Of a DNA stretch of 64,000 nt, positions 648-42,128 are shown one piece after another. Under the pieces are notes generated by a model. It made no database searches. It had not been told where the DNA came from and was given only the letters and a program-made list of their open reading frames with translations. A program made the position numbers and the translations under genes. The stretch's first letter is position 1. Every line of letters starts with the position of its first letter. Source of the stretch: Candidatus Latescibacterota bacterium (lineage in GTDB: Bacteria > Krumholzibacteriota > Krumholzibacteriia > WVZY01); contig CAWBQK010000013.1 in assembly GCA_963791045.1 (NCBI GenBank), positions 1 through 64,000 on the forward strand, in the 5' to 3' direction.

Positions 648-911
648 TCACCGACAACTCCTTCACTTTGTGACATTTCTTCAAACGAAGATAGACCACC
701 GGCACGGCTATTCTGGCCAAGGGTATGGAATAAATATCAAACCCGTCAAGAAAAACAAGAGCCCCAAAGCTGTTGAAGGTCTTTCGATTACCAACTTCAC
801 ATGCCGATTTGACGCCCGCCTTCCAGCCTCAAGAAAAAACCTTTCGCGAACGCCCATCTCTCGCTAGAATACGCTGAAGAACCCAGTTCAGCCGATTTGG
901 CCTAAGCAATC

Positions 912-1703
912 ATGGCGGACAAGGTCGCCCCTGAAAAAAGCGTATGGCGGACGCCCTTGGACATCGTCACCATTCCGCTACCCCAACCGCTGGAAGCCAT
1001 AATGGAGCATCCGAAAAGACCGCGCGGCCAAGCGCGGCAAGACATGGAAGAGCATTGCGAAAAGGTTCTTCGTCGGATTGAAGACCACTATTGGAAGAAA
1101 CAAAACTCCGATGACGAGGCCCAAATACCAGCTCCGAAAGTATGGCGATGGCTTGACGAAGGCGCACTGACAGATGCACCTCGGCATAGCCCCGACGGCA
1201 CCCCACTATCAATCGCGATGATGAATGCGAGAGTGTCCGCAATACGGATCATTTGGACACTAGACGCGAACGCAAACCAGAGGTCGGATACCCTCGGGAA
1301 ACATCTTGAAGAGCGCCTTGAGGATGCGTGCTTGTCCATCTTGCAAGGCGATGTGACAACCGCAGTAGTACAGAAGATTCTCGACCAAACCGACATGGCG
1401 CTGGCAAATCCTTATCGCAAACTCTCTGGAAATAACCAGCCGACAGCGAGTCATAACGATGTCCCACCCTGCCCCAGAGGTGTATCAATTGGTGATGACT
1501 TGCGCGAAAAGGCATGGAGAGCCCTGCCAGCTGAAAGTTGGTTCAGCAGTAGCATACTGCATCTTCCGTCTGAACTTTCCTTAATGTCGGAACGACTTGC
1601 CCGCGACCTCTGTCGAGGATGGGCTGCAGAGAACCACCTCGAAAGCAACAACAAAAAGACAAGCGCGCGACGTTACCGCAAGACCGCCGACCCCCCTCGA
1701 TGA
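912..1703 (+). CDS. Hypothetical protein (island-encoded)
   Basis: 263-aa ORF in an AT-richer region; no motif recognised. Confidence 0.55.
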   Translation: MADKVAPEKSVWRTPLDIVTIPLPQPLEAIMEHPKRPRGQARQDMEEHCEKVLRRIEDHYWKKQNSDDEAQIPAPKVWRWLDEGALTDAPRHSPDGTPLSIAMMNARVSAIRIIWTLDANANQRSDTLGKHLEERLEDACLSILQGDVTTAVVQKILDQTDMALANPYRKLSGNNQPTASHNDVPPCPRGVSIGDDLREKAWRALPAESWFSSSILHLPSELSLMSERLARDLCRGWAAENHLESNNKKTSARRYRKTADPPR

Positions 1704-1735
1704 AGATTGCCGAATCGTACCGAAGATTGCCGAAT
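1702..1735 (+). repeat. Direct repeat GAAGATTGCCGAAT x2, 20-bp period
   Basis: Exact 14-mers at 1702-1715 and 1722-1735, with a partial third copy (ATCGCCGAA) near 1739. Confidence 0.75.
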
Positions 1736-2021
1736 TACATCGCCGAACAACATAGCTATACTTTCGAGGTAATCGAAAGGTGATGCTATGTCAATCAATC
1801 GTTATTAACGCCGTATCAAGTGGCTTCCCGCCTCCAAGTTTCACCGCGACAAGTTCTCCAGTGGGCGCGAGACGGGTAATTCCCGAGATCAAGCTTTCAC
1901 CGAAAACTCGCCGCTATAACTGGGAGGCCGTTGTACTACATTGGGGCATCGAACCACGGAATGCAAGGTAGACCGATGAGTTCACCAGACGTGGACGTTA
2001 ACAATTCGACCGGTGATATAA

Positions 2022-2748
2022 ATGCGAAAATATGAACTTCCCTACTTTCCGCTCGACCCCCGCGATATAATCGCCAGCACGAAGCTCATGTTTCTTAACG
2101 CTGCGGAGCTTGGATGCTGGCTTCGGCTTGATCTTACTGCTGGCTTGACGGGTCAATCCCCGACGATGACGCAAAACTGGCCGAGATGACACGTGCGGGG
2201 GTTGACTGGGCACGATACGCGAGAGCGTTATTGTTTTCTTTTTCCAATCGGGACGGTCAATATGTGGACGATGACCTCGAAGCGGTGCGTATAGAACAAC
2301 TGGGGCGATTGCGGCGCATGTATAAGAGCAGGAGCAGAAACACGTAGAAAACAAAGCCAAAAGGACTCGAATTGTGTCGAAGATGGCGGACCCCGCGACG
2401 CTCCGGATTCCTGTCCGCAGCCCCCTCAGGGAAATCACGCCGACCCCTTCCCACGGAAGGAGTCGTGAAGCTTTCAAACTTAAAGATTTCCAAGTTGAAG
2501 TTCTAAACAAATGTGAGGATCGACCAACTGGGTGCGATCACCCCGCCAGTGCGACTTTTTTCCAAATCGGGAAATGGGTACCCGAATCAATCATCAATGA
2601 GGCGCTCGCCAGCATGCAAGATGCCCGAATGCGATCACTGGACCCTGAATGTGAGAACCCTTTACGCAATCACACTGCATTCTATCTTGGATGCATCCGA
2701 GACATGTGCCAGAAACAAGGGTTAAAGACGCCAATCAGATGGTTGTGA
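2022..2748 (+). pseudogene. DUF1376/YdaU-like phage replication protein, frameshifted
   Basis: MRKYELPYFPLDPRDIIASTKLMFLNAAELGCWLRL continues after a frameshift as YCWLDGSIPDDDAKLAEM, matching the DUF1376 N-terminal pattern. It probably continues into ORF 2374-2748. Confidence 0.55.
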
Positions 2749-2912
2749 ACAATCATCCGCCCCAATTAAATCAGTAGGTGGTTGAAAGGTAGTTGGAAGC
2801 ACCTTGGAACATTAAAACAATGAAGAAAAGAAAAAAGACAATCAAAAAAACCAAGGTTAAACAATGATCTGCGGAGTCGTTGGCAGATCCAGACTTGTAA
2901 CCAAACAACTCG

Positions 2913-3318
2913 TTGACTTTTGAGGAATCGCCAGAGGCACAGATGACAAAAAAGATGTGTATTGCCCAGCCCACGAAAAAAATTGATTCTGAGAGCCCAT
3001 CCGCTGAGTTGATGAAGCATAGCACGGATGATACATCACCGGCATTGGGAAACCTAACCGGTCTACACTCGTTTAGTATCGTTGCTGAATTAGGCAAACT
3101 CGGCGGTGGCACTATAGTCACCCAGAAATGGCTCGCGGACCACGTTGGATGCAATCCCATATCTATTAAGCGAGCCGTGGACCGAGGTGAACTCCCACCT
3201 CCCGTCAAAATGTTCGGCAAACCCACCTGGACTGTTGGCAGCAATAGTGCGCCATGTGGAGCATCGACTTAAGCTGGCTGCCGAAGAGGCAAAAATCCTC
3301 GCTCAACAAAGAATTTGA
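2913..3318 (+). CDS. AlpA/excisionase-like helix-turn-helix protein (probable frameshift near 3240)
   Basis: QKWLADHVGCNPISIKRAVDRGELPPPVKMFGKPTW resembles the AlpA/MerR-type winged HTH. It lies just upstream of the integrase. Start codon uncertain. Confidence 0.6.
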
Positions 3319-3561
3319 CTTATAGGACATCATAAAGTCAACCTAGCCGGTATGGTTAAAGCGATCCGGAAGCGCAAGTCATCGCAGACGAGTTTAGTAC
3401 CGGCCGACCGACCTACCCAAAGGAAAGGCTCGATGCTGAACGGGGTGCGTAGTTCGTCTTCAATGCCAACGGAGACTAACAAGATTGAACCAATCGGGCC
3501 AGAAAGTGGCGGTATACCGTCGCTCGTTATATTCGAAATCGAATCCTGGAGGATTAGTGTT

Positions 3562-4871
3562 ATGGCTGGAGCCCGAAAGAAACCGCGTGGCAAGGATGGC
3601 GTTTACCAGGGCTATTACGTCGATTGGACTGGTAAAAGGCGAACCTTCCGTGGAACGACCGACCGAAAAGACACAATAGCCCTCGCTCGGAAGCTCGAAG
3701 ATGACGACCGTCAAATCGCGTTGGGTTATCGATCGCCTCCAAAGGCCTCCGACGCTCCACGCCGATTTTTCGAGACAGCTGCCGAATACTGTCAATGGGG
3801 CGAAGCCAAGGCGGACGGGGCGGCAGACCATGGGGGGCGAAACACGCCAGGGAACGTCGCAGCAAGCTCGCGTGGTGGGGAAAACAATTAGGTCTCGCCA
3901 TGGTCGCGGACCTCTTGGAAAGCCTTCCCGTGTGGAAAAGGCTCTCCGAGAACCTGGCGGAAACACGAGCCGGTAAGACGGTGGCGAACTACGCCGAAAC
4001 GCTCGCGGCATTCTGCGATTGGTGCGTCACGCGCGGGATACTATGGATTCCGATCCTCTCGCCGCGCTCCAAGGATTCGACACGTACGCCGAAGACAGAA
4101 CGTCGCGCGCTAACAGAGGATGAAATCGATCGTCTTCTAACTCACTGCCGAACGGAATATCGGCTCTTGTATGAAACCGCGCTGGCTTCGGGACTCCGAG
4201 CCAATGAGTTGCGGAATCTCCAATCGCGCAATTTGGATTTGAATCGAGTCGGGGTTAATTTTTAGACGCTGAGTGGACTAAGAGCCGAAAACCGGCCTTT
4301 CAACCAATTCCTGGTGTTCTAGCCCGTCGATTGCACGAATCAGCCCTCAAAGGAGAAGCCCGCGAACTATACTGCCAAGGGCCGCATCTCGACGCCGAAG
4401 GTCTGCGGAAAGATGCCGTGCCGGTTGATCCGCTACTATACGTACCTTCTCATCCCGCATTCACGAACTGTATACGGACTTGAGCGCTGGCAGACGTTTC
4501 GCGATGGACGCCCGAGGGCAAAGTTGATTTCCATGCGTTGCGGACCAGCTTTTGTACTTCGGTGATCGAGACAAGGTGCAAACCTCAAGGAAGCCATGAC
4601 ACTCATGCGCCACTCTACTCCCGACATCACCGCCAACACCTACGCACGAACCCACCCCGACCGAATGAATCAATTGGCCGAAAAGATCGGTCAGCGGTTG
4701 AAATCGAACCAAAGTTGTGTCAGTAGCGTGTCAGAGGCGGTAGTAGGCGCTGAAGAATCCGTCGCCAACGCCAGTGAAGGCAAAAGGATAAGTGACGAAG
4801 AAGAATGGTGGAGGCGGCGGGAATCGAACCCGCGTCCGAAGACAGATCCATGCAAGCGTCTACGTGTGTAG
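3562..4871 (+). pseudogene. Tyrosine recombinase/integrase with several frameshifts
   Basis: GGAGG RBS precedes ATG 3562. Catalytic motifs are spread across frames: LASGLRANEL (R), DFHALRTSF (HxxR), LMRHS...ITANTY (H, Y). Confidence 0.85.
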
Positions 4872-5159
4872 TCCGTGGATTTAATCCCGTCCTCCGTTGC
4901 TCCCCACAGACAGGATCATCGAAGGACCCACCCCTAAGTTTCGCCGGGAACGCCGAGGCACTCAAACCCGACTATTCTCCAGAATATGACGCCCACTCAC
5001 CGGCCCTGGAGACCCAACCGGCGGGGACGAGCCACTATTTAAGCAGCCAGTGCGACTGGTTCGTCAACACTTCTTTGTTTGCCACAGTTTTAACGAGCTC
5101 ATGACAATCTCGACACGCAGCTTACACTCCACTATCCCCGTCGAACCCAAATCGCCCCC
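4806..5159 (-). ncRNA. ssrA: tmRNA (transfer-messenger RNA)
   Basis: 5' end GGGGGCGATTTGGGTTCGACGGGG and 3' end GGACGCGGGTTCGATTCCCGCCGCCTCCACCA, 354 nt. The tag reading frame ends ...EPVALAA-stop (5039-5068). Confidence 0.96.
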
Positions 5160-6091: not shown

Positions 6092-7240
6092 ATGCCGCGC
6101 CAATCGCTCACCAAATTGTCCGATAACGCTCTTCTCTCTCGTCTTCAAAACTCGTCACCCACGAAAAGCAAACCACACTCTCTATACTAGAGCACCTCGC
6201 CGAGGTCGACCGGCGCGATCTTTATCTTGCCTATGGATTCAGTTCCCTCTTTGATTATTGTGTCGGCGCACTCGGGTATTCGCGGTCGGCGGCGGGCAGA
6301 CGGATCGCCTCGGCCCGTTGTATTCGTCGTTACCCCGAAGTGTTCGATCTTCTCGAGTCGGGCAAGGTCAACCTGTGCACAGTCGGTCTCGTCGCCCCGA
6401 TACTCAATGACGAGAACAAGGACCTGCTCCTCCGCGAGATCCGCGGCAAGACAAAGCAGCAGGTCGAGTCGATCGTATCCAGGTACAAACCACCCATCGC
6501 CTACCGCGATAGGGTGCGTCCCGTGCGTGTAGCCGTCCCTCAACCGAGGCAAAACACCCAGAATCGCCGTAACCCGTTGATTTTTAACTCCCACTGCGGG
6601 ACTAGCAATCGAACAAATTGCGGGATAGTTGATTCTGGCGGGAGCCTGGGGTCGAGCCCGAGGAGCAAGGAGACAACGAGCGCATGCCCCGCGCCGGGGG
6701 CGCCTGGCGGGAATGAACAGGGCATACGGTGCAGTGCCGCACGAATCGAAAAACGGTTACTGATTCAGTTTCTTGCCGGACGAAGAATTCATGGCCAAAC
6801 TCGAGGAAGTCAAGTCCCTGCTCTCGAACAAGATACCGAACGGCACATTCGAAGACGTGTTCGAAACGATGATGGACGAATTCATCGACCGTCACAGCCC
6901 CAAGAAACGAGAAGAGCGCAGAATGAAGAAAAACAAACAAGCCCCATCGACAAAACAGACAACAGAGAAGAGCGCGACCGACAAACAGACTCGCCACATC
7001 CCCGCCACGACACGCGACAAAGTCTATGTCCGCGACAACGCGCGATGCACGTATGTCGGCAATAATGGAAAACGGTGCAATTCCACACACAACTTGCAAA
7101 TCGATCACATAAAGCCTGTCGCGCGAGGCGGACCAAACACGCTTTCGAATCTTCGCTTGTTATGCGGCAAGCACAACCGGCTCGAGGCAAAAAGAGTGTT
7201 GGGGGAAAAAACAGTTGAACGATACAGCAGAAGAGAGTGA
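6092..7240 (+). CDS. HNH endonuclease with DUF222-like helical N-terminus (frameshifts near 6148 and 6775)
   Basis: LSDNALL...HLAEVDRRDLYLAYGFSSLFDYC...AAGRRIASAR at the N-terminus; RCTY...RCNSTHNLQIDHIKPVARGGPNTLSNLRLLCGKHN at the C-terminus. GGAGG RBS. Paralogous to 54960-56301. Confidence 0.85.
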
Positions 7241-7279: not shown

Positions 7280-8176
7280 CTACTTCACAAGAAGCGTAGA
7301 GTGAAAAACACCGCCACCGGAGACATCAACGACATCGACGTCATACTGCCCTGGTTCGAGCGATCCGGGCGCGAGAAAGAGACACAAAGAATAGTTCTCG
7401 CTGAAAACCCGTCCGGTGACGGACCTTTCCCAAACAAGGTCAGTCCCCGCCTGAACGAGACGAACCGTGTACATATCATTGGGCACAGGCGGCGCACCCA
7501 GACCCGTAAGTTCGAGCAAGAGAAACTGCGCCTCGTCCGCCTCAAAACTCGCCGCCTCAAAAGTCGATTCCCCACCGCGCATGGCGCCCATCTCGTCGGA
7601 AACGATCGTCACGCCACCAAGCACGCCTCTCGAATCGCCATCAAAATCCCCACGATCCGGACGGGTCATTAGCAACCCGACGGCAACAACCGCGATCACG
7701 AGATAAACGGCCGCAGCCGCCGGCCTCAACGCGGCGCCTAAAAAGATTTCCCACCATCGCCGTCCATACACATCTTCACGGACAGACCGATGGGATACCT
7801 GTCGGGAGCGCGATTCAACCCCATCCTCAACGGACGCCGTCCGCTCAACAGTCTCGAGCATTTCGATTTCGTCCTGGCACTCGCGGCAGATTTCGAGATG
7901 CTTCTCGATACCCTTCCGCACTGAAGAGTCCATGGCAGCCCGGTTTTCTACGAAATCAACTAACGCCGCAGCGTCAGGATGGGCGGGAAACTCTTCAACC
8001 AGGATCGACTTGAATTCGGAGGCAAAGCCAAGGAGTTCGGCGCACGCCTCGCACTTCGCCACATGGGCCTCGACCTTCTGATTTTCCAAAGAGGTCAACG
8101 AACCCGTGGGCATCCAAACAAGAAGCTCCTGAATAACCCCACACTCGCCGTCTTGTGATATATTGCCACCGCTCAC
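7280..8176 (-). CDS. Membrane anti-sigma factor with two zf-HC2 (ZAS) motifs, one TM helix and an extracytoplasmic beta-rich domain
   Basis: HVAKCEAC and HLEICREC motifs; hydrophobic AAAAVYLVIAVVAVGLLM; directly downstream of the ECF sigma gene. Confidence 0.8.
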   Translation of the reverse strand: MSGGNISQDGECGVIQELLVWMPTGSLTSLENQKVEAHVAKCEACAELLGFASEFKSILVEEFPAHPDAAALVDFVENRAAMDSSVRKGIEKHLEICRECQDEIEMLETVERTASVEDGVESRSRQVSHRSVREDVYGRRWWEIFLGAALRPAAAAVYLVIAVVAVGLLMTRPDRGDFDGDSRGVLGGVTIVSDEMGAMRGGESTFEAASFEADEAQFLLLELTGLGAPPVPNDMYTVRLVQAGTDLVWERSVTGRVFSENYSLCLFLAPGSLEPGQYDVDVVDVSGGGVFHSTLLVK

Positions 8177-8246
8177 TTGGTTCTCCCCGAATAAATCGAG
8201 CCATCAACGACCCGCAACCGTTCCACGATATTCTTACGGACGCCCA

Positions 8247-8879
8247 TCACGGCGCTTGCATCAGCGCACGCGCGCCTTTCAAACATCGGAACAATTTGAC
8301 GCGCGCAGCCTCTTCCGAGATCCCCAGCCGTTTGCCGATTTCTTTTCTGCTGTAACCCTGAACGTACGCAAACAGGAGCATTTCACGGCAGCCCTGATTC
8401 AACTGCGACAGCACCCGGTTCAAATCGGCCCGGCGTTCGATTTCGCCGCCCGTCGAACGCGGCGACACAGGGTCAGCGCTGACGTCGAGCGACACGTGTT
8501 CGCCCCTGTTCTTGATTTTTCTGTAACTTGTAATACACATGTTTTTTGTAATGCGACGGACATACGCGCGAAGGTCTCCGCCTTTGAAACGTCCGTCTCT
8601 CAGATTCTGGACGACGGCGAGAAGTGTCGCCTGGACGATATCCTCGGATGTCTCGAACCCCCACACACGGTGCGCGGCGACGGATTTCGCCCAACCCGCC
8701 ACCAGGCGAACGTCTTCGGGCCGTCCCTGGAGAAAACCCTGGACGACAAGATCGGATTGGTCGGCGGAGGGATCATGAGCGCGGCCGGGATCGGGCAACT
8801 CCGATCGGTCCGGCGATTGGCTCACTCCCTCATCTGTTGCGTCTTTACGGTCTTCGGAAACCAAATGCTGCTCTCCCAT
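8247..8879 (-). CDS. ECF RNA polymerase sigma-70 factor
   Basis: Region 2 (SEDIVQATLL...YVRRITKNMCITSYRK) and region 4 (GYSRKEIGKRLGISEEAARVKLFRC). Confidence 0.92.
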   Translation of the reverse strand: MGEQHLVSEDRKDATDEGVSQSPDRSELPDPGRAHDPSADQSDLVVQGFLQGRPEDVRLVAGWAKSVAAHRVWGFETSEDIVQATLLAVVQNLRDGRFKGGDLRAYVRRITKNMCITSYRKIKNRGEHVSLDVSADPVSPRSTGGEIERRADLNRVLSQLNQGCREMLLFAYVQGYSRKEIGKRLGISEEAARVKLFRCLKGARALMQAP

Positions 8880-9008
8880 TCTCTGTTAAGAGAATGGTAC
8901 TCCTTCGTTTCCCGAGACGTCAAGGCGCCCGCTTCCCAATCGCCCTCTCCTCACCCAGCCGATTCAAAACCCGGGGCCCCCATGAGCACCACCCAACCCA
9001 ATGATTCC

Positions 9009-9034
9009 ATCGTACAGACGATCAAAACGTTACA
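9009..9034 (-). promoter_or_regulatory. Putative ECF promoter for the sigma/anti-sigma operon (TGTAAC-N16-CGAT)
   Basis: Minus strand reads TGTAACGTTTT-gatcgtctgta-CGAT, the same motif and spacing as 12154-12179. Confidence 0.7.
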
Positions 9035-9048
9035 CATGGGTTGACAGG

Positions 9049-9077
9049 TTGATTCACCCCGAACTTGGGTATATGCT
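9049..9077 (+). promoter_or_regulatory. Putative sigma70 promoter of the CHAT gene
   Basis: TTGATT-N17-TATGCT ending 10 nt before GTG 9087. Confidence 0.45.
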
Positions 9078-9086
9078 TACTGTGTT

Positions 9087-12000
9087 GTGGAATCAGTACT
9101 TTGGAAGACTTTCGGAATCGCCGTGATCGTCACTCTGTGCCTCCTCCTCGTCACAAGCGCCGGTGGCATCGACGGACGTTCTGAAGGCGATGACGACGCG
9201 GCGGATCTCATCGAGCTTGCCCGGACGCGGATCGAGCAAGACCGCCTCGAAGAGGCGGACGACCTGCTCGTCGTAGCGTTACGCGACATAGAAGCAGATT
9301 CGACTGGAGATGAAAATCTTCTGGCGGATATCTGTGTCTACCGCGCAAGGATTGCGACAAGCCTCGGCAACTCCAACGACGCCCGCCCACTGTTTGAAAA
9401 AAGCCTGTCGATAAAAACACGTTACTGGGGAGTCGATCATCCCGAATGCGTTCCGGCGATCACCGGCATCGCGACACTGGAGCTGATCGCCGGAGATTTC
9501 ATAGAAGCGGAGCAACTCTTCGAGCGCGGTCTCTCTATTCTGATTCCCAGGCTCGACCCGCTCCATGAATGGATCGTGGAAGCGGCCATCGGGCTTGCCG
9601 AGAGCCAGGGATACCGGAACGACTATGCCGCCGCCGAATTGACACTCCGGCCGAGTCTCGATGCGTTAACGATGCGGGGCGGCAACACCGACGGGCGATC
9701 GGTGCGCTTGATGCTTGCCCTGGCCGAAGCGCTTTCGATGCAGGGGAAAGATGTCGAATCAACTCTTCTGTTCCGAAAGGCCTATTTGATCGCAGAGGAA
9801 GTCTACGGACTCAATCATACGACCACGGCAAGGGCGCTCGCCGGCCTCGCGCACACGTACCGGCGCTCGGGAACAGTAATGGAAACCCGCGCCCTTTACA
9901 GGCAGTGCGTCCAGATCGTCGAATCACGCCACGGCGCGCTCCATCCGGATCTCGTCCACTACCGGTCTCGTCTTGGGATGTCGCTCTTCGAAGGGGATCG
10001 CTGGTCCACCGAAGCCGTCGCTTCGATCGAGCGCGCGATCTTTGACGCGGAGGAACTGTACGGACCTGAAAGCTATCAGGCGGCCCTCGAAGAACGCCAG
10101 CTCGGTCTCGTGATGATGGGTCGGTACGAGTGGCCGGAAGCCGCCGATGTCTTTGCCTCGTGCATCCCGAATCTCGAACGTTATTTCGGCGCCAACCATC
10201 CCTTTCTCAGCAAGAGCCTCAAGGGAATGGCGTGGTCGCTTCTTCATCTGAATCAGCCCGACGACGCCCTGTATTATGTGGATCGCGCCGTATCGCTCCA
10301 TGAAAAATCGCCGACCTTCGACGCATTCGAGCTGTCATTTATCCTCGGCATGAAAGCGACCATCGAAATCGACGCACATTCTTACGACGCGGCGTTGCGC
10401 TCGTCAAGACGCGCCGTCGAGTTGGCGATCAACGTCCAGGAAAATAATCTCAAGATCTCATCGACCCGCGAAGCGGTCTTGTATGCCACACGCCCGTGGG
10501 CGACGGCACAGGCGCTGGTCGCGGCGGCCGTGGCTCACCCGAGTTTGACCGACGCGGACTGGGGAACCGTCTTTGCACTCGTCGCAAAATCCCATGGAAG
10601 CGTTCTCGACTGGCAGGCCGAGCGCCACCGGTTCATTCAATCGATCGGCGGAACAGCCGGGCCGAACGCCGCGGCAAAAACCGCGGCGCAGGACCTATCG
10701 GATTTGACTCTTAACGGCCCGGGCCCCGACACGACGACGTATTACGGTCAGCTCGCAGCCGCGCGGCGAAGAGTCGAAGAGGCCGAACGTGAGTTGTCGG
10801 CGGCCACCGAGGAATGGCGGGCCGCGAGCGAATACGCCGACATATACCACAGAATCTCGCGGGAATCGCTTTCCGACGCCTTGCCCCCCGGGACCACCCT
10901 TGTGCATTTTCTGACATTCACAAAAATCGTCGACTCGCCGTCAAACACGCCATCCTGGCGGGAACCGCACTACGCGGCGTTTCGTTTGTCGAAATACGAT
11001 GAGAATGTCGAGGAACTCGATTTCGTCGACCTGGGCAAGGCAGTGTCGATCGACTCGCTCATCGGCGTCTACAGACAAGCCGTCGACGAAATCCGCTCCC
11101 CCCAACGACCGTCCGCGCGGGAAGAAGCCGAATACAGGCAGTCCGCGCGCACACTCCATGATCGAATATGGTCACCGCTCTTCCCGGATTCTGCGAGCGA
11201 CCCGAACCGGGCCGAGACGGACGCAGCGCCACTTGTGCTAATCATACCCGACGCGGGACTCCACCGCGTCGACTTCAACACGCTCCTCTCCCCTTCCAGC
11301 GAACTCGTCATCGAGAAGTACAAGACCCACCTGCTATCGTCGAGCGCCGACCTGTTGCGGTCACCGCCAAACAACGGCATCGGACGAAACATGTTGGCCG
11401 CGGGCAACCCGGCCCCAACGGTAAATGGTTCATTGAATCTAACGGAGAACAGCCACGATACACATCCAAACAGGGTCAACTGCGTCGACGAATCCGTTTT
11501 CTCCGTCGTTCTTCCCGGCGCCGAACTCGAAACAAAAAACGTCGCGCTGATTTTTGAAAAAGAATCGGGGGAGTCGACATACGTCCTGACCGGCACCGGT
11601 GCGACCGAAACCCGAATCAAGCAGAATATCGAATCAAAACGAATCGTCCACCTCGCGGCCCACGGTTTTGTCTGCGGAGGGAACGACAACCGGCCGCGAT
11701 TCATCGCAACGGACCCGCTCGATCCGCTCCTCATGTCGGGCCTCGTCTTCTCGCCGGTCGACGGCGTGGACGACGGACTCTTGACTTCCCGTGAGGTCGC
11801 CTGTCTCGACCTATGCGGCGTGGAACTGGTCGTTTTGAGCGCCTGTGGGTCCGGGCTCGGAGAAATTGTCTGGGGCGAGGGGATGTTCGGGCTCCGCCGT
11901 GCGTTCGAGATCGCCGGCGCGCGAACGGTCATGATGGCACTTTGGCGGCTCGACGACACAGGCGCCCGCCTTCTGATGGAAGAATTCTACAAACGCAAAC

Positions 12001-12131
12001 TCGCCGGCGCGTCAACACTGGACGCAATCCACGAAGCCCAGATCGAGAGACTCGCCGACGTTCGCCGCCGCCTCAACCGATTTCACCCAGCTCTTTGGGG
12101 CGGGATCGTCACCGAGGGCGACTGGCGATAG
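9087..12131 (+). CDS. Exported TPR-CHAT (caspase-like, clan CD) protease
   Basis: N-terminal hydrophobic signal/anchor FGIAVIVTLCLLLV; TPR-like GxxHP repeats; CHAT motifs IIPDAGLHRVDF, IVHLAAHG (His), VVLSACGSG (Cys), AGARTVMMALW, HPALWGG. Confidence 0.92.
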   Translation: MESVLWKTFGIAVIVTLCLLLVTSAGGIDGRSEGDDDAADLIELARTRIEQDRLEEADDLLVVALRDIEADSTGDENLLADICVYRARIATSLGNSNDARPLFEKSLSIKTRYWGVDHPECVPAITGIATLELIAGDFIEAEQLFERGLSILIPRLDPLHEWIVEAAIGLAESQGYRNDYAAAELTLRPSLDALTMRGGNTDGRSVRLMLALAEALSMQGKDVESTLLFRKAYLIAEEVYGLNHTTTARALAGLAHTYRRSGTVMETRALYRQCVQIVESRHGALHPDLVHYRSRLGMSLFEGDRWSTEAVASIERAIFDAEELYGPESYQAALEERQLGLVMMGRYEWPEAADVFASCIPNLERYFGANHPFLSKSLKGMAWSLLHLNQPDDALYYVDRAVSLHEKSPTFDAFELSFILGMKATIEIDAHSYDAALRSSRRAVELAINVQENNLKISSTREAVLYATRPWATAQALVAAAVAHPSLTDADWGTVFALVAKSHGSVLDWQAERHRFIQSIGGTAGPNAAAKTAAQDLSDLTLNGPGPDTTTYYGQLAAARRRVEEAERELSAATEEWRAASEYADIYHRISRESLSDALPPGTTLVHFLTFTKIVDSPSNTPSWREPHYAAFRLSKYDENVEELDFVDLGKAVSIDSLIGVYRQAVDEIRSPQRPSAREEAEYRQSARTLHDRIWSPLFPDSASDPNRAETDAAPLVLIIPDAGLHRVDFNTLLSPSSELVIEKYKTHLLSSSADLLRSPPNNGIGRNMLAAGNPAPTVNGSLNLTENSHDTHPNRVNCVDESVFSVVLPGAELETKNVALIFEKESGESTYVLTGTGATETRIKQNIESKRIVHLAAHGFVCGGNDNRPRFIATDPLDPLLMSGLVFSPVDGVDDGLLTSREVACLDLCGVELVVLSACGSGLGEIVWGEGMFGLRRAFEIAGARTVMMALWRLDDTGARLLMEEFYKRKLAGASTLDAIHEAQIERLADVRRRLNRFHPALWGGIVTEGDWR

Positions 12132-12153
12132 CACCCCAAATCAATAACTCTCC

Positions 12154-12179
12154 TGTAACGTTTTCCCGCACCATGCGAT
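12154..12179 (+). promoter_or_regulatory. Putative ECF promoter of the secreted FG-GAP protein gene
   Basis: TGTAACGTTTT-cccgcaccatg-CGAT, about 115 nt upstream of ATG 12295. Confidence 0.7.
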
Positions 12180-12294
12180 CTCCATTATAGACCCCAATCG
12201 ATTCCGCATCTGTTGGCAACCGGCGCCCCGGTCTCGGGAAACCCATTTCGTTGCGGCGCGGCGAGCGGGCCGTAGCTTTACCGAGGAGAAAGAC

Positions 12295-15200
12295 ATGAGA
12301 GCGACATTCGTCCTTTTGGCAATGGCCTGCACGTTGTTGGCCCCAATGACGGGAAACGCCGTCAAGGTAGTGGTCGACGCAAATGAAGATGCTTACGTTT
12401 TGAGTTCTACTCCGACGACCCTGTACGGAGGGGCCACGACACTGCTCGTCAAGCACACCGAACCCCCTTCAGAGACAATGGCCAGGGCGTTCCTGCAATT
12501 CGACTTGTCGTCGATTCCAGCCGATGCATCAATCCAGGTCGCGCTCCTGTACATGTACGATCAAACCGCCGGGGGCGGAAGCAATCTCAATATCTACCCC
12601 GTCGATACCATATGGTCGGAAGCCACCGTCAACTGGGATAACCAGCCGTCTTACGATCCCGTGGCCGCGGGTATTCTGCTCGGTTACACATACACAGGTT
12701 GGTACAACGCCGACGTGACCGGCCTTGTCAATGAGTGGCGGGATGGGCTTCGCTCGAACCACGGACTTCTCGTAAAAGAAGGCGGTTATTTTTGCCCGGT
12801 GACACTTCCCGCGTGCGGCCCCCGCACATTCAGGAGCAGCGAGTACTCCGGCTTCAAGCCCTATTTGATGGTTATATACGACTCTCCCACCGTCGACCTT
12901 CCGGCTGATATGGATGCGCACGTGAGGGAGTCCTCGGACACTACCAATTACGGTTTGAGCGAAACGCTGAATATTGGTGACAAGGGTTGCCGGAGCTATC
13001 TTGGGTTCAACACAGCGGGCATCCCGGCCGGCGCCACGATCGAATACGCCAGAATTCGACTGTACCATTTCGCCTACTCGGGAGGGTTTCCAGGGGCAAC
13101 GGGGTTTATGACGAGCGCCTTCCGCGTCACTGAGTCGTGGTCGGAGGAAACCATCAACTGGTCGAACAAGCCATCCCACGCCACAACGCCGGAATCTATC
13201 AATGTGAACAATATCGGTGGAATCTACGTCGGATGGGCCAATTTTGACGTGACGTCTTTGGTCGAAGACTGGGTTGGCGGAGAAACAAATCACGGCGTAG
13301 TAGTCCGTGAGGCCGTGACATCCAGCTTCGCCAGCCAGACGGGATTCATGCGCAGCGATGAATACGCCGACCCCGATTACAAGCCCCGAATTGAAGTGTT
13401 TTACTCGTTCGCGCCGCAAAACGAATTTGCGCCGGACCAGTATCTCACCGGCGTATCCATGGGCGACGACTGTTGGGGCGACATTGACGGCGACGGCGAC
13501 CTCGACCTTGTCGTTTGCGGCGACGACGGCGGCGGCCCCCTCACCAGTCTCTTCATCAATCACCTGGGGACCCTGACGGAAAGCTACACCCACCCGTTCC
13601 CGGATATTCGAGGTGCGGCGAGCACCGGCAATCTCGACTTCGGAGACTATGACAACGACGGCGACCTCGACCTGGCGCTCGCAGGCGAGGGCTCAGGTGG
13701 TCCCGTGACGGAGATTTATAAAAATAACGGCGCCGGAACGTTTACCCTCGACACCCGTCAGTCATTGACGCCGGTCAAATACGCATCGCTCGACTGGGGT
13801 GACTACGACAATGACGGGGACCTCGACCTCTATGTCCAGGGGCACAACGGCACCGTTTCGTTGTCGAGTGTGTACGAAAACGATGGCACGGGGCTTCTCT
13901 CCGGAACCGCGGCGGCATTGACTCCCCTTTGCGCGGGGTCCGCCGACTGGGTAGATTTCGATGGCGACACCGATCTGGACCTGGCTGTTACCGGCTCCGA
14001 CCTCGTCGCCCGTCACACCATATTCTACGAAAACGACAACTCGGCGTTGACACCGTTGGGCAACAAGGGACTCCCCGATGTGGCCTACTCGGACATGGCG
14101 TGGGGAGACTTCGACAGCGATGGCGACCTCGATCTCGCATTTATGGGACAGGTGATGGCGCCCGGCGGCGAATATACTCGAGTCTACCAAAACGACGGAG
14201 GGGGCGGACTCTCGCTCGCCTGGGACGTTGACAACCTTCGTCTCGGCGAGTGCGCCTGGGGTGATTTCTCGAATGACGGCAAACTCGATGTCATCTTCTG
14301 CGGCGACCACGCCATTCTCGGTCCCTTGACGGAAATCTTCTACAACGACGGCACCAACAACTTCTCCGGGCTTGCCACACCCCTCGTCACGGGTGTCCAA
14401 CGGGCGTCGGCAAGCTGGGCCGATGTCGACAGCGATGGCGATCTCGATCTCTTCATGACCGGAGAGGATATCACGACTGCGAAATACGCCGTCCTTTACG
14501 AAAACACCGGCGGCCCCGCCAACACACAGCCAGAACCGCCGACCGAATTCGAGACCTCTCGTCTGCCCGGTTTTTCACCGCTTCTGCCGGACACACTCAT
14601 AATGAGATGGGACGGAGCAAATGACGAGGAAACCGCTGAGAGGGGATTCTATTATTGTGTCCGCGTCGGCCATGGCTGGAAAGGCGATGACATTTACTCG
14701 GGCACATATGGTTCACCGCTTATGGGAAACGTCCAGGGAGCCAACGAGCTCAGAGTCGCCATCCCGCCCGTCGAGCCCGACGACCACTTCTATTGGAGCG
14801 TTAAAACGATCGATGCGGGATTGATGGCTTCCGAGTGGTCAACGCAACAATGCAGCTGGAAACCGGACAGCCTGTGGTGGAATATCGACACGTGCAACGA
14901 CGACGCCTACGTCGATAACGGGCTCCCCAACAACACCTATGGAGTGACCGAAGCCATAAACTTGATTGTCGGCGACCAGGGCTATTCGAGCAGAATAGCC
15001 CGCTCGTACTTGCAATTCAACAAACCCACATCCCTCGATCCTGGAGCGGAGATCGCCAAAGTGGAATTGTACGTGCACTGTCGAAGTATCATCTCACCGC
15101 CATACTATGTCGAAGCCCGGCGTGAGAACGACGACACTTGGGACGAAAACACGATCACGTGGAATAACGCTCCCACAGCGTTCCACCCGTACGCCGACGA

Positions 15201-15708
15201 TGCCGTACGCGTAACTCCGGGGTGGTGCGTGTGGGACGTCACGTCGAGTGTCAACGCCACCGTGGACGGCGTCATCACGTTCGTTCTTCGGGGCGCCACA
15301 CCACCCGAAGGAACACTAGGAGTTCAAGCCGAGTTCGACAGCAAGGAGACGGCAAACGCACCCTATCTCAAGACTCATTACATGACCGTTGTCGGAATCG
15401 GTGACGACGCACCGGAGCCGGACCGATTTGCGCTCTCGCAAAACGTGCCCAATCCATTCAACCCGACTACGCGCATCAGCTTCACGATTCCGAACGGTTC
15501 GGGACCTGAACACGTAACCCTGAAGATTTACGATGTGTCAGGAAGGCTCGTGCAAACACTGTCTGACGAACCCAGGGGGGGCGGTCTCCATACGATCGAA
15601 TGGAACGGAAAGGACCGCCAAGGCTCACCCGTCGCCAGCGGCGTGTATTTCTACAGGCTTCGGTGGAATGAAAACGTCGAATCAAAAAAGATGGTGCTCT
15701 TGCGTTAG
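12295..15708 (+). CDS. Secreted protein with three DNRLRE/CBM96-like domains, an FG-GAP/VCBS beta-propeller and a C-terminal FlgD-Ig domain
   Basis: Signal peptide; three DAYV/DAHV...YG...WxExT[VI][NT]W modules; seven [WF][GVA]DxxxDGxLD repeats; ends QNVPNPFNPTTRI...SGVYFYRL...KKMVLLR. Confidence 0.9.
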   Translation: MRATFVLLAMACTLLAPMTGNAVKVVVDANEDAYVLSSTPTTLYGGATTLLVKHTEPPSETMARAFLQFDLSSIPADASIQVALLYMYDQTAGGGSNLNIYPVDTIWSEATVNWDNQPSYDPVAAGILLGYTYTGWYNADVTGLVNEWRDGLRSNHGLLVKEGGYFCPVTLPACGPRTFRSSEYSGFKPYLMVIYDSPTVDLPADMDAHVRESSDTTNYGLSETLNIGDKGCRSYLGFNTAGIPAGATIEYARIRLYHFAYSGGFPGATGFMTSAFRVTESWSEETINWSNKPSHATTPESINVNNIGGIYVGWANFDVTSLVEDWVGGETNHGVVVREAVTSSFASQTGFMRSDEYADPDYKPRIEVFYSFAPQNEFAPDQYLTGVSMGDDCWGDIDGDGDLDLVVCGDDGGGPLTSLFINHLGTLTESYTHPFPDIRGAASTGNLDFGDYDNDGDLDLALAGEGSGGPVTEIYKNNGAGTFTLDTRQSLTPVKYASLDWGDYDNDGDLDLYVQGHNGTVSLSSVYENDGTGLLSGTAAALTPLCAGSADWVDFDGDTDLDLAVTGSDLVARHTIFYENDNSALTPLGNKGLPDVAYSDMAWGDFDSDGDLDLAFMGQVMAPGGEYTRVYQNDGGGGLSLAWDVDNLRLGECAWGDFSNDGKLDVIFCGDHAILGPLTEIFYNDGTNNFSGLATPLVTGVQRASASWADVDSDGDLDLFMTGEDITTAKYAVLYENTGGPANTQPEPPTEFETSRLPGFSPLLPDTLIMRWDGANDEETAERGFYYCVRVGHGWKGDDIYSGTYGSPLMGNVQGANELRVAIPPVEPDDHFYWSVKTIDAGLMASEWSTQQCSWKPDSLWWNIDTCNDDAYVDNGLPNNTYGVTEAINLIVGDQGYSSRIARSYLQFNKPTSLDPGAEIAKVELYVHCRSIISPPYYVEARRENDDTWDENTITWNNAPTAFHPYADDAVRVTPGWCVWDVTSSVNATVDGVITFVLRGATPPEGTLGVQAEFDSKETANAPYLKTHYMTVVGIGDDAPEPDRFALSQNVPNPFNPTTRISFTIPNGSGPEHVTLKIYDVSGRLVQTLSDEPRGGGLHTIEWNGKDRQGSPVASGVYFYRLRWNENVESKKMVLLR

Positions 15709-15873
15709 AAATTTCCTCAGGCGGTGCTAGCAGGGGGGAGAAAGAAGCCCGGGACATGCGTGTCCCGGGCTTCTCCATTTGGGCTCCGGCACATGCGCCG
15801 GCCAGGCCAGGCCGCGCCCCAGAGTGACTTTCTCACGAACGACGTCGACAGGCCGTTAGCCTGGCGGCGCTAT

Positions 15874-15916: not shown

Positions 15917-16066
<150 letters not shown>

Positions 16067-16933: not shown

Positions 16934-19900
16934 ATGCGCTCTCGACACACAAGAACGCTTATTGGAGTCATCCTGGCGATGGTGCTGATCGTCCCCACGC
17001 TGGCGCTATCCCAGACCAAGCTCCTTCGATTCCCCGATATCCACGGGGATAAGGTCACGTTCTGCTACGCAGGTGACCTGTGGCTCGCCGACGCGACGGG
17101 CGGAACCGCCGTACGGCTGACTACACACCCGGGGCAGGAACTCTTCCCCAAATTTTCACCCGACGGCAAATGGATCGCTTTCACCGGTCAGTACGACGGT
17201 GACGAGCAGGTCTATATTATACCGACGGAGGGTGGGGTTCCGACCCAGCTTACATTTTACCCGGCGCTCGGGCCTCTACCTCCGCGTTGGGGTTATGACA
17301 ACCAGATCTACGGGTGGACCCGCGACGGTAACGCGGTTCTGTTCCGGTCGATGCGTTACGGCTTTGACCTGACCGACACCCGGCTCTTCACCGTGACCTT
17401 GAAGGGCGGACTCCCCGAGCCGCTGCCGATGCCCGTGTCGGGCGCCGGCGAGTTCTCCCCCGACGGGTCGAAAATGGTCTATTCCCCCCTCATTCGTGAT
17501 TTCCGAACATGGAAGCGCTATCAGGGTGGCTGGGCGCAGGATCTTTATACATTCGACCTGACGACATTCGAAGCGACGCAGGTCACCGATCACGACCGCT
17601 CGGACCGTGATCCGATGTGGATCGGCGACATGATTTACTTCTCGTCGGACCGTGACGGAAAACTCAACCTGTACTCGTTCAATCCCGCCACAAACGAGAC
17701 CGATCAGCTCACGAAAGAAAAAACCTACGACGTCCGCTGGCCGAGCGCCGGTGACGACGGCCGTATCGTTTATGAGTTGAACGGCGAGCTTCAGGTTTAT
17801 GATATCGCCACGGCGAAATCAGCTAAGATCTCGATTCTCGCCAACAACGACGGTGTCGCTATGCGGCCGACGCGGATTTCGGCAGCTCGCAATGTCGAGG
17901 CGTACGGACTAAGCCCCAAGGGCGAACGCGCCGTATTCGCCGCGCGCGGTGACATCTTTACCGCGCCGATCGAAAAAGGCGCCACGCGTAATCTTACCAA
18001 CTCGTCGCGTTATCACGACAAGTGGCCCGCGTGGTCTCCTGACGGGAAAAAGATCGCGTTTATCTCCGACCGCACCGGCGAGGAAGAAATCTATCTCGTC
18101 GACCAGGACGGCAAGGGCGAGATCGAGCAGCTCACCAACAACGGCAAGGAAATGCGGTACGCGCCCAAGTGGTCTCCATGCGGCAAGATGATCGCGTTCA
18201 CCGACAAAAACGGCAAAATCTGGGTGCTCGATGTCGCGACCAAGAAGTCCATCGAAGTCGCCAACGAAAAGAACAACTGGACGACCGACTACATGTGGTC
18301 GCCCAACGGCGGATATCTCACCTTCAGCATGGAAGACGAAACCGGCTTCGCTTCGATTTACATTTGGAGCGCCGGGGACAAAAAGCTCCACCGGATCACC
18401 GGGCCGTACTTCAACGAGTTCGAACCCGTGTGGGATCCCAGCGGCGACTATCTCTATTATATGAGTGATAGAGAGTTCGCACCCCAGATCGGATCGATCG
18501 AGTGGAACTATCTCGTCGATCGCGAGACGTATATCTACGCGCTTGCGCTCCGCAAAGACGTCAAGAACCCGTTCCCCTTCGAGAGCGACGAGGTAAAAAT
18601 CGACGAAGAAAAGAAAGACGGGGACAAGGACGACAAGAAGCCCGAGAAAGGCAAAGACGAAGACAAGGACAAGGACAAGGACGAGAAGAAAGACGAGAAA
18701 AAAGAGCCGATCAAGATCGACTTTGAAGGACTCGCCGACCGTGTCGCCCGCATTCCCGTGGACGCGGACAACTTCTATGGTCTCGAAGCCGTCGAAGGCA
18801 AGATCATCTACGTCGCCGGAAGCCCGTTCTACTACGGACGTGCGAGCGATGTAAAACGGACGATCAAAGTCTTCGAATTCGAAGATCGTAAAGAAAGCAC
18901 GATCGTCGAGGACGCCGGCGGATACGCGCTGTCAAACGATGGCAAGAAACTGCTCGCGCGCGTGAACGGCCAGTTCAAACTTTTCGACGCAAAGCCCAAG
19001 GGCGGAGACGCCAAGGCAGTGTCGACGAGCGGACTCATGGTCGACAGAGTTCCCGCCGACGAGTGGGCCGAGATCTTTGACGAGGTCTGGCGCCGCTTCC
19101 GTGATTTCTTCTATGCGGAGAACATGCACGGTTACAATTGGGAACAAATCGGCGACCGCTATCGCCCGCTTGTCGAGCATGTCGCACACCGCGCCGACCT
19201 CAACTATGTGCTCGGCGAAATGGTCGGAGAGCTCAACACATCGCACTCTTACATCCAGGGCGGCGACTACGAAGTTCCCGACAGACCGAGAGTCGCGCTT
19301 CTTGGAGCTCGCCTCGAACTGGACCCGAAGGAAAACCGGTACAAAGTTGTCGAGATCCTCAAGGGTCAAAACCAGGAGGACCGGTACCGCTCACCGATGA
19401 CAGAAATCGGTGTCGACATAAACGTGGGCGACTACATTCTCGCCATCGACGGTGTCGATCTTACCGGCGACGAGAACCCGTACCGGATGCTCCGCAACAA
19501 GGCGGACCGCCCCGTCGCGCTTCTCGTCAACTCTTCGGCGAAGAAGAAAGACGCACGCAACGTCACCTTCGAGCCGATCTCGAGTGAGCGGAGCCTCCGC
19601 TATCTCGAATGGGTCGTCGGCAACCGCGAGAAGGTCGCGAAGGCCACGGACGGGCGTGTCGGATACCTCCACGTACCCGACATGGGTTCCGACGGAATCC
19701 GTGAGTTCATCAAGTGGTACTACGGCCAGATCAAGATGGAAGGTCTTGTCATCGACGTCCGCGGAAATGGCGGCGGAAACGTATCGCAGATGCTCATCGA
19801 ACGACTGGGGCGCGAACTCCTCAGTCTCGACTACTCGCGCAACAGCGAATACGCGAGCCCGTATCCGAACTCCGTTTTCAACGGCCACCTCGTCTGTCTC

Positions 19901-20260
19901 TTGAGCGAGACGTCGGCATCGGACGGGGACATCTTCCCCGCGATGTTCCGCAAGGCGGGCCTTGGTCCGCTAATCGGCAAACGCTCATGGGGCGGCGTGA
20001 TAGGTATTTCGGGCCGCGGTCCATTAATTGACGGCGGCACGGTATATGTCCCCGAGTTCGGTTTCCTGAACACCGACGGTGAGTGGGATATCGAGAACTG
20101 GGGCGTCGATCCCGATATCGTGGTCGAGAACGATCCGAAATCGGTTATCGAAGGACGCGACCCGCAGCTTGAACGTGGGATCGAAGAGATCATGAAGATG
20201 ATCACCGAAGACCCAATCAAGATGCCGAAGCGTCCCGCCTATCCTGTGAAGACGAAGTAG
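16934..20260 (+). CDS. Tricorn protease homolog (S41 peptidase with beta-propellers and PDZ), exported
   Basis: PD40-like FSPDG repeats; GELNTSH; IDVRGNGGG; ASDGDIF; GKRSWGG; GVDPDI. Confidence 0.95.
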   Translation: MRSRHTRTLIGVILAMVLIVPTLALSQTKLLRFPDIHGDKVTFCYAGDLWLADATGGTAVRLTTHPGQELFPKFSPDGKWIAFTGQYDGDEQVYIIPTEGGVPTQLTFYPALGPLPPRWGYDNQIYGWTRDGNAVLFRSMRYGFDLTDTRLFTVTLKGGLPEPLPMPVSGAGEFSPDGSKMVYSPLIRDFRTWKRYQGGWAQDLYTFDLTTFEATQVTDHDRSDRDPMWIGDMIYFSSDRDGKLNLYSFNPATNETDQLTKEKTYDVRWPSAGDDGRIVYELNGELQVYDIATAKSAKISILANNDGVAMRPTRISAARNVEAYGLSPKGERAVFAARGDIFTAPIEKGATRNLTNSSRYHDKWPAWSPDGKKIAFISDRTGEEEIYLVDQDGKGEIEQLTNNGKEMRYAPKWSPCGKMIAFTDKNGKIWVLDVATKKSIEVANEKNNWTTDYMWSPNGGYLTFSMEDETGFASIYIWSAGDKKLHRITGPYFNEFEPVWDPSGDYLYYMSDREFAPQIGSIEWNYLVDRETYIYALALRKDVKNPFPFESDEVKIDEEKKDGDKDDKKPEKGKDEDKDKDKDEKKDEKKEPIKIDFEGLADRVARIPVDADNFYGLEAVEGKIIYVAGSPFYYGRASDVKRTIKVFEFEDRKESTIVEDAGGYALSNDGKKLLARVNGQFKLFDAKPKGGDAKAVSTSGLMVDRVPADEWAEIFDEVWRRFRDFFYAENMHGYNWEQIGDRYRPLVEHVAHRADLNYVLGEMVGELNTSHSYIQGGDYEVPDRPRVALLGARLELDPKENRYKVVEILKGQNQEDRYRSPMTEIGVDINVGDYILAIDGVDLTGDENPYRMLRNKADRPVALLVNSSAKKKDARNVTFEPISSERSLRYLEWVVGNREKVAKATDGRVGYLHVPDMGSDGIREFIKWYYGQIKMEGLVIDVRGNGGGNVSQMLIERLGRELLSLDYSRNSEYASPYPNSVFNGHLVCLLSETSASDGDIFPAMFRKAGLGPLIGKRSWGGVIGISGRGPLIDGGTVYVPEFGFLNTDGEWDIENWGVDPDIVVENDPKSVIEGRDPQLERGIEEIMKMITEDPIKMPKRPAYPVKTK

Positions 20261-42007: not shown

Positions 42008-42128
42008 ATATCCATAGCCTTGTCAACGATTTAGGGCAAAAGGCTTAAGAGAGTTGTGGGTCCGCCCGCCTGTCACGGCTCTCAATCGATTTCCGCATGC
42101 CCTGCGGAGGAAGAGACGCGAGGATACT

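Follow-up and report, generated by a model that had tools for sequence, protein, structure and literature searches.

A repeated ECF-type promoter motif before a sigma/anti-sigma operon and a gene for a T9SS-sorted protein, with a divergent TPR-CHAT gene, in a Candidatus Latescibacterota contig

The DdvS/DdvA system of Myxococcus xanthus pairs a sigma factor of the extracytoplasmic function (ECF) type with a zinc-binding, single-pass anti-sigma factor and an extracytoplasmic TPR-CHAT module (PMC6061681, PMC11506125). Removal of the bulky TPR-CHAT domain of DdvA permits RseP cleavage (PMC11506125). The sigma factor is described as autoregulated through GTAA-n16-CGT-type promoters, which are repeated before neighbouring target genes (PMC6061681, PMC11506125); the start sites of four of them were mapped by rapid amplification of 5' cDNA ends (5'-RACE; PMC6061681). 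Fused DdvA-like proteins were reported by the DdvA authors only from Myxococcota and one Comamonas. Here we analyse a locus with a related set of parts on a 64,000-nt stretch of DNA from a Candidatus Latescibacterota bacterium (assembly GCA_963791045.1, contig CAWBQK010000013.1, positions 1 to 64,000), referred to as the window. Two copies of an ECF-type promoter motif stand before, respectively, an ECF sigma/anti-sigma operon and a gene for a large protein with a type IX secretion system (T9SS) sorting domain. Between them lies a TPR-CHAT gene, divergent from the sigma gene. On the sequence evidence it is likely that an autoregulated ECF sigma factor reads both sites and so drives its own operon and the T9SS cargo, with the TPR-CHAT protein proposed as sensor. 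The promoter logic is textbook ECF autoregulation.

Promoters of several ECF sigma factors provide the standard of comparison. Those of Bacillus subtilis SigX carry tgtAACnww (-35) and CGwCww (-10) (Huang and Helmann 1998, quoted in PMC8024623), a motif also given as TGTAAC / CGWC (PMC12153292). A four-T run in the spacer contributes to activity in the case of SigAb (PMC12153292). Entries in the PMC7826278 supplement (Casas-Pastor et al.) list GTAACA/G (-35) and GAT (-10) for Corynebacterium glutamicum SigD, GTAACC-CGTA for Caulobacter SigF, TGTAACAAA / TCGTCAT for ECF120, TGTAACCTT for ECF231 and CGAACGTTTC / CGTCxTA for ECF221, and give autoregulation as the usual ECF pattern.

Both copies in the window have the form TGTAACGTTTT-N11-CGAT. 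The minus-strand copy reads TGTAACGTTTT-GATCGTCTGTA-CGAT and the plus-strand copy TGTAACGTTTT-CCCGCACCATG-CGAT (table 1). A preliminary description of this DNA had called them identical sites with unrelated spacers, each about 115–130 nt before a start codon. The pair is confirmed on both counts: 15 fixed bases are shared at equal spacing, the 11-nt spacers agree at 2 of 11 positions, and the distances are 130 nt (sigma ATG 8879) and 116 nt (ATG 12295). Both copies are intergenic and each is oriented toward its start codon. The predicted transcription starts fall at about 9003–9000 (minus strand) for the sigma operon and about 12185–12188 (plus strand) for the target gene. The motif is rare. 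With up to two mismatches allowed, a search of both strands of the window returned just these two matches, where 0.16 were expected, and none of 100 shuffles yielded two or more; base composition gives an expectation of about 5e-5 for a second exact copy in 128 kb. All 80 unrelated alphaproteobacterial ECF loci listed (28–36% identity) lack the motif, and a literature string search with two motifs and their complements returned unrelated primer sequences only.

Table 1. Features of the sigma/anti-sigma, TPR-CHAT and target genes and of their upstream regions (window coordinates).
Feature	Position	Strand	Remarks
Single-pass zinc-binding anti-sigma factor, 298 aa (P0002)	7280..8176	-	zf-HC2 2e-07
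ECF sigma factor, 210 aa (P0001)	8247..8879	-	Sigma70_r2 residues 61-122; Sigma70_r4_2 residues 152-200
Sigma-70-like site TTGACG-N18-TACCAT	8894..8923	-	9/12 to consensus; between ECF promoter and sigma start
Shared element GTCTCGGGAAAC, sigma leader	8907..8918	-	27 nt before ATG; overlaps sigma-70-like site 8923..8894
ECF-type promoter, sigma/anti-sigma operon	9009..9034	-	-35 TGTAAC 9034..9029; T-run GTTTT 9028..9024; -10 CGAT 9012..9009
Weak sigma-70-like site TTGATT-N17-TATGCT	9049..9077	+	8/12 to consensus
TPR-CHAT protein, 1014 aa	9087..12131	+	CHAT 1.3e-53; TPR_12; divergent from sigma gene
Second ECF-type promoter, before secreted-protein gene	12154..12179	+	Begins 23 nt past CHAT stop codon
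Shared element GTCTCGGGAAAC, target-gene leader	12231..12242	+	52 nt before ATG
Predicted target protein, 1137 aa	12295..15708	+	Three CBM96/DNRLRE domains; FG-GAP repeats; T9SS / FlgD-Ig C-terminal sorting domain
Perfect 14-bp hairpin	15743..15774	+	35 nt after target-gene stop

Judged by its sequence, the motif falls within the published ECF promoter family, and the architecture first proposed for it stands. The -35 contains AAC and is followed by a T-run (TGTAAC, then GTTTT, in both copies), as ECF -35 elements often are. The CG-containing -10, CGAT, begins 16 nt after TGTAAC in both copies, within the 16–17 nt typical of CG(T/A) elements. The CGA of this -10 agrees with SigX CGwC and its GAT with SigD. 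The copy before the sigma gene lies on the same strand as that gene, the arrangement expected of autoregulation. The likeness to SigX-type promoters noted in the preliminary description is backed by the consensus quoted in PMC8024623 and PMC12153292: the -35 TGTAACGTT conforms to tgtAACnww, CGA opens the -10, 16 nt separate the two, and SigX too belongs to an autoregulated ECF sigma/anti-sigma operon. Differences are found in the fourth base of the -10 (T, not C), in the phylum and in the type of anti-sigma factor, and the NCBIfam SigX model scores the window sigma factor at 40.8 bits against a cut-off of 194. Among the promoters listed in the sources cited, the closest published match in both elements is that of C. 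glutamicum SigD (ECF40), with GTAACG (-35) and (C)GAT (-10) in the window; this likeness concerns the two motif elements and implies no kinship between SigD and the window sigma factor.

Looser forms of the motif add no further regulon member in the window. TGTAAC-N16-CGAT with one mismatch allowed gives nine sites where 3.2 are expected. GTAAC-N15-18-CGA gives eight, three of them intergenic: the two promoters and 6333..6310 (minus strand), which has no convincing gene downstream. The claim that the pair defines the regulon of the sigma factor was overstated: the view is limited to 64 kb, and that this sigma factor reads the sites is itself deduced.

As the preliminary description had it, one promoter copy precedes a sigma operon. 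The first gene encodes an ECF sigma factor with sigma-2 and sigma-4 regions, and a zinc-finger anti-sigma gene follows. About 45 aa at the N-terminus of the sigma factor form a variable tail, and the protein's start at ATG 8879 is supported by homologue P0004, which likewise begins MGEQHL. Among the best 25 NCBIfam models listed, only the superfamily model TIGR02937 passes its cut-off (69.6 bits against 42.9). None of the named ECF subfamilies in that set (SigX, SigM, SigZ, SigE-Streptomyces, Bacteroidetes, Planctomycete) does so, the best subfamily scores being 40–49 bits against cut-offs of 126–350. The protein belongs to a tight family: 68 relatives are found at E <=6e-38, followed by a gap to 1e-9 (78 matches from 436 candidates), and one relative is annotated as Candidatus Krumholzibacteriota. 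Its closest solved relatives in a PDB sequence search are distant (SigL, E 1.9e-06). The anti-sigma factor has the marks of the zinc-binding anti-sigma (ZAS) class, with HxxxCxxC in an N-terminal helical domain and a gene adjoining that of the sigma factor. Two such motifs, H38-C42-C45 and H93-C97-C100, are invariant in 40 aligned sequences, as are C12 and H66, and the family counts 55 representatives at E <1e-30. In the structural model (mean predicted local distance difference test score, pLDDT, 83.2), helical bundles at 7–62 and 69–125 exceed pLDDT 88; a membrane helix at about 153–171 leads to a C-terminal beta-sandwich (189–297) predicted to lie outside. A fold search with the model returned generic Ig- or cupredoxin-like beta-sandwiches only, at a best query-normalized TM-score of 0.27.

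The leader of the sigma operon holds other sites. The sigma-70-like site at 8923..8894, unmentioned in the preliminary description, is a possible basal promoter for the operon. Six sigma-70-like sites occur in the scanned region where 3.7 are expected, so that this one is not significant by itself. AGGAG 21 nt upstream of the sigma ATG is too far away to be its ribosome-binding site. The leader's minimum-energy fold places the AUG start inside a hairpin of 9 perfect base pairs (CCAUUCUCU / AGAGAAUGG) at 8871..8897 (minus strand).

The TPR-CHAT protein is predicted to be a caspase-like protease, and its His-Cys dyad is intact: H859 (HLAAHG) and C920 (SACGSG) are invariant in all seven aligned CHAT sequences. 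Its N-terminus, M-E-S...K followed by a hydrophobic stretch (signal or anchor), is common to homologues P0081 and P0083, which supports both the start at GTG 9087 and an extracytoplasmic location. The database version (P0080, 1002 aa) starts at 9123, 12 codons inside the longest open reading frame (9087), and the homologue N-termini favour the longer form. The gene had also been assigned a separate sigma-70-like promoter. A site is indeed present at 9049..9077, but its 8/12 agreement with the consensus is below the promoter-scan threshold of 9/12, and the window holds 21 copies of the skeleton TTG-N20-TAnnnT where 11.7 are expected. Ten nucleotides separate the end of the site from the GTG, which implies a near-leaderless mRNA, and no Shine-Dalgarno sequence precedes the start codon. 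Its -35 stands back to back with that of the divergent ECF promoter at a distance of 14 bp, so that two polymerases would compete for space. The earlier label of 'constitutive sensor' is overstated. From the CHAT stop (12131) to the second ECF promoter no terminator-like site was found, and read-through into the target gene is therefore possible.

Homologues bear on both the gene set and the promoter. Co-location was deduced from matching contig sizes. By this measure the sigma homologue P0009, the CHAT homologue P0083 and a 61%-identical target homologue, P0110, all lie on a 308,279-nt contig, sigma P0010 and CHAT P0084 on a 2,994-nt contig, and sigma P0041 and CHAT P0085 on a 4,415-nt contig; the sigma–CHAT pairing thus recurs. 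Another CHAT homologue, P0082 (55% identity), is annotated with 53 extra N-terminal codons, which are a read-through of its own upstream region. Residues 1–53 of P0082 served as a proxy for that upstream DNA and were compared with 8925..9086 of the window. At zero offset from the start codon, the extension shares S-I-V-x-T-x-x-T-L-H with the in-frame translation of the non-coding DNA of the window. Over the promoter (9006..9035) 7 of 10 codons match and elsewhere 4 of 43 (11 of 53 in total); a 7/10 match was reached in one of 200,000 permutations. The window frame has a stop at 9042, so the identity reflects conservation of DNA, not of coding. Nine of the 15 fixed promoter bases are determined by the extension and equal, five are compatible, and one, the last T of the T-run, differs. 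These matches are suggestive, though not proof, of a conserved promoter block in the P0082 contig. The extension also holds G-I-C-L, as GGTATATGCTTA (9068..9079) would translate with the register shifted by one base; this is no more than compatible with a conserved -10-like box upstream of the CHAT gene. An HPE tripeptide shared by P0082 and another window frame was judged a chance match.

A second shared element emerges when no motif is chosen beforehand and the full 207 nt between genes on the sigma side are compared with the full 163 nt preceding the target gene. Besides the 11-mer of the promoter, this gave a longer exact 12-mer, GTCTCGGGAAAC, new relative to the preliminary description. 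It is an imperfect palindrome, GTCTC-GG-GAAAC, and in both regions GGCGCC lies just upstream (at 5 and 3 nt) and CCATT follows. The 12-mer is collinear with the promoter at unequal spacing, 116 nt from TGTAAC on the sigma side and 77 nt on the target side, and in both leaders it lies downstream of the predicted start site. Its two exact copies are the only ones in the window; with two mismatches allowed, nine sites are found against 8.8 expected, the chance level. Among dinucleotide shuffles, a common block of at least 11 nt appeared in 13 of 2000 and one of at least 12 nt in 1 of 2000. Two collinear blocks of at least 11 nt appeared in 0 of 5000, and two of at least 9 nt in 9 of 5000. Of 861 upstream-region pairs compared across the window, two have two collinear blocks of at least 11 nt: the sigma/target pair and a trivial one, in which a single intergenic region contributes the same palindromic terminator from either side. 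The idea that the 12-mer is a second promoter (GGGAAAC as -35 or GTCTC as -10) was discarded: the sequences 15–18 nt away are unrelated, leaving no -10 or -35 partner common to the two copies. Neither leader shows significant RNA structure (fold z-scores -1.87 and +0.50), and Rfam gave no match in 8700..12500 apart from a sub-threshold one inside the CHAT gene (E 0.41). Whether as an operator or as an RNA site for a second factor, any function given to the 12-mer is a guess.

The mechanism these parts suggest can be outlined in stages. (i) In the resting state, the zinc-binding anti-sigma factor, encoded just downstream, would hold the sigma factor at the membrane. (ii) The exported or membrane-anchored TPR-CHAT protein would sense an extracytoplasmic signal. 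(iii) It would then clip the outer domain of the anti-sigma factor, or trigger its clipping. (iv) Intramembrane proteolysis would next release the sigma factor. (v) Free sigma would guide RNA polymerase to TGTAAC(-35)-N16-CGAT(-10) at the two places. (vi) At its own operon this would give positive feedback. (vii) At the second site it would lead to synthesis of the large T9SS-sorted CBM96/FG-GAP surface or secreted protein. The separately encoded TPR-CHAT protease is the likely sensor; the CHAT step is drawn by analogy with DdvA.

The comparison with DdvS/DdvA also reveals differences. In the published accounts the TPR-CHAT module is fused to the periplasmic side of the anti-sigma factor, whereas in the window it is the product of a separate, divergent gene. 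The His-Cys site of DdvA is described as incomplete, whereas the dyad is invariant here, and the window anti-sigma factor is modelled as ending in a small beta-sandwich. The spacing from GTAA to CG is 17 in the window and 16 in the DdvS promoters described, and the predicted target is a T9SS protein, not a CBASS or CRISPR system. PADLOC defence models matched none of five proteins, and no DdvS or DdvA chain appeared among the PDB sequence matches. ECF54 resembles the locus in its neighbouring conserved TPR and CHAT protein, for which proteolysis is proposed (PMC7826278 supplement, PMC8999054). As listed there, it differs in having no anti-sigma factor and in being 100% actinobacterial, whereas the window sigma factor has one and has a relative in Candidatus Krumholzibacteriota; its gene neighbourhood (subtilase, carboxypeptidase-like) and the promoter predicted for it, GTATCAG / CTCC, are also different (PMC7826278 supplement). 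Another TPR-CHAT protease is Csx29 of the type III-E craspase (PMC10028731). The complex is cytoplasmic, RNA-guided and CRISPR-linked, and nothing of that kind lies in the window. These features set the craspase apart from the present locus. Csx29 is reportedly linked through Csx30 to an ECF-like sigma factor, which would likewise place a TPR-CHAT protease upstream of an ECF-type sigma factor.

Several points weigh against the proposal that the adjacent sigma factor drives both genes. The -10 is CGAT rather than the commoner CGTC or CGTA. The comparative support for the promoter comes from one contig, through degenerate back-translation. Full-length target orthologues P0111–P0115, on contigs of 7 to 65 kb, match no sigma or CHAT contig in length, so linkage of the target to the module may not be constant. 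The start sites and the sigma dependence are predictions. A different ECF sigma factor, encoded elsewhere, might read the two promoters alone or besides the adjacent one; the adjacent sigma factor would then not be autoregulated through them. Overlapping recognition of this kind is documented for C. glutamicum, where SigD promoters are also read by SigH (PMC7826278 supplement), and the contig, of which the window covers 64 kb, extends to at least 335 kb, in a genome whose other ECF sigmas could read the same motif. The window itself holds no further sigma gene. Against this reading, the motif stands immediately before the sigma factor's own operon, the usual signature of autoregulation, and the block appears to be kept beside a CHAT gene of the same module in P0082; both make a foreign sigma factor improbable as the explanation.

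The shared 11-mer could instead be an operator for an ordinary DNA-binding regulator and not a -35, with CGAT incidental or a part of it. Its AACGTT core is a palindrome, TGTAACGTT matches 9 of the 12 positions of a full palindrome, TGTAACGTTACA, and the GTCTC-GG-GAAAC element is itself an imperfect palindrome. Since the two regions share that further 12-mer, some additional common factor is likely; together with the AACGTT palindrome it means that a non-sigma factor could be involved, which also tells against the proposal as it stands. Against an operator in place of a promoter, the sigma gene is the only regulator gene in the module, both halves of the motif fit ECF -35 and -10 elements in sequence and spacing, and P0082 appears to keep both halves, not the 11-mer alone. 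We give this explanation little credence. Less probable still, the two upstream regions might be decayed copies of a duplicated promoter-leader cassette, in which the blocks are leftover identity with no present function. Two collinear exact blocks, with GGCGCC and CCATT flanking the 12-mer in both regions, are what such a duplication might leave. Yet there is no alignment between the blocks, the spacing differs by 39 nt, neutral decay would not spare two perfect blocks of 11–12 nt, and the promoter block appears to persist in a contig with a CHAT protein of just 55% identity. Pure chance is barely credible. Single shared 11- to 14-mers are not rare (11 of the 861 upstream-region pairs share a block of at least 11 nt), whereas the shuffles (0/100 and 0/5000), the pairs with two blocks (2/861), the permutations (1/200,000), the fit to a consensus specified beforehand and the place beside a sigma gene all speak against coincidence.

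The target protein has orthologues with 41–61% identity over full length, and its start at ATG 12295 is supported by GAGGAG 7 nt before. The database version (P0109, 1128 aa) starts at 12322, nine codons inside the longest open reading frame (12295). The hairpin beyond the stop codon is likely to mark the end of a one-gene transcription unit. FlgD-Ig and Por_Secre_tail sorting domains are typical of phyla of the Fibrobacterota-Chlorobiota-Bacteroidota (FCB) group. Four large window proteins end in such domains, at 12295..15708 (+), 22207..24453 (-), 38146..40899 (-) and 42054..44792 (+), and the ECF motif stands upstream of one of the four only.

The module as a whole (7280..15708) is bracketed by a tmRNA gene and an HNH gene on one side and by tRNA-Lys (15992..15917, minus strand) on the other. 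The small HNH endonuclease reading frame (6773..7240, plus strand) runs toward the end of the anti-sigma gene in convergent orientation. At 5159..4806 (minus strand) is the tmRNA gene, with a second, partial tmRNA-like match at 4256..4899. Beside it are a lower-GC stretch (47–55%), a DNA methylase fragment (3..647, minus strand) and a weak phage-integrase fragment (3795..4265, plus strand), and the reading frames in 1..5159 mostly have no Pfam match and low coding scores; this region looks like an element integrated at the tmRNA gene. Past tRNA-Lys and an SSB gene, a tricorn-like protease (16934..20260, plus strand) combines PD40 beta-propellers, Tricorn C1/PDZ and Peptidase_S41. It has no ECF motif upstream, and a one-mismatch match lies within its own coding region (17327..17352).

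A fuller version of the proposal would see here a split DdvA design. An exported, stand-alone TPR-CHAT protease, its dyad intact, would make the site-1 cut in trans on a small double-zinc-finger anti-sigma factor and free an ECF sigma factor of an unclassified group characteristic of Krumholzibacteriota-like bacteria. The minimal regulon would be the sigma operon itself and one T9SS-exported glycan-binding surface protein, and GTCTCGGGAAAC in both leaders would provide a second, sigma-independent control at the DNA or RNA level. Taken with all its parts this version is tentative and rather doubtful. No description of a split ZAS and TPR-CHAT module was found in the open-access literature searched. 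If the proposal is correct, the sigma operon and its one T9SS cargo would form a first testable regulon for an uncharacterized ECF group in a candidate phylum without a cultured model, and the defined promoter could be tried at once in heterologous ECF reporter systems. The link from TPR-CHAT proteins to ECF sigma factors, characterized so far only in the fused DdvA of Myxococcus, would be widened to an arrangement split over two genes, its protease site intact, and trans-cleavage of an anti-sigma factor by a CHAT protease would become open to experiment.

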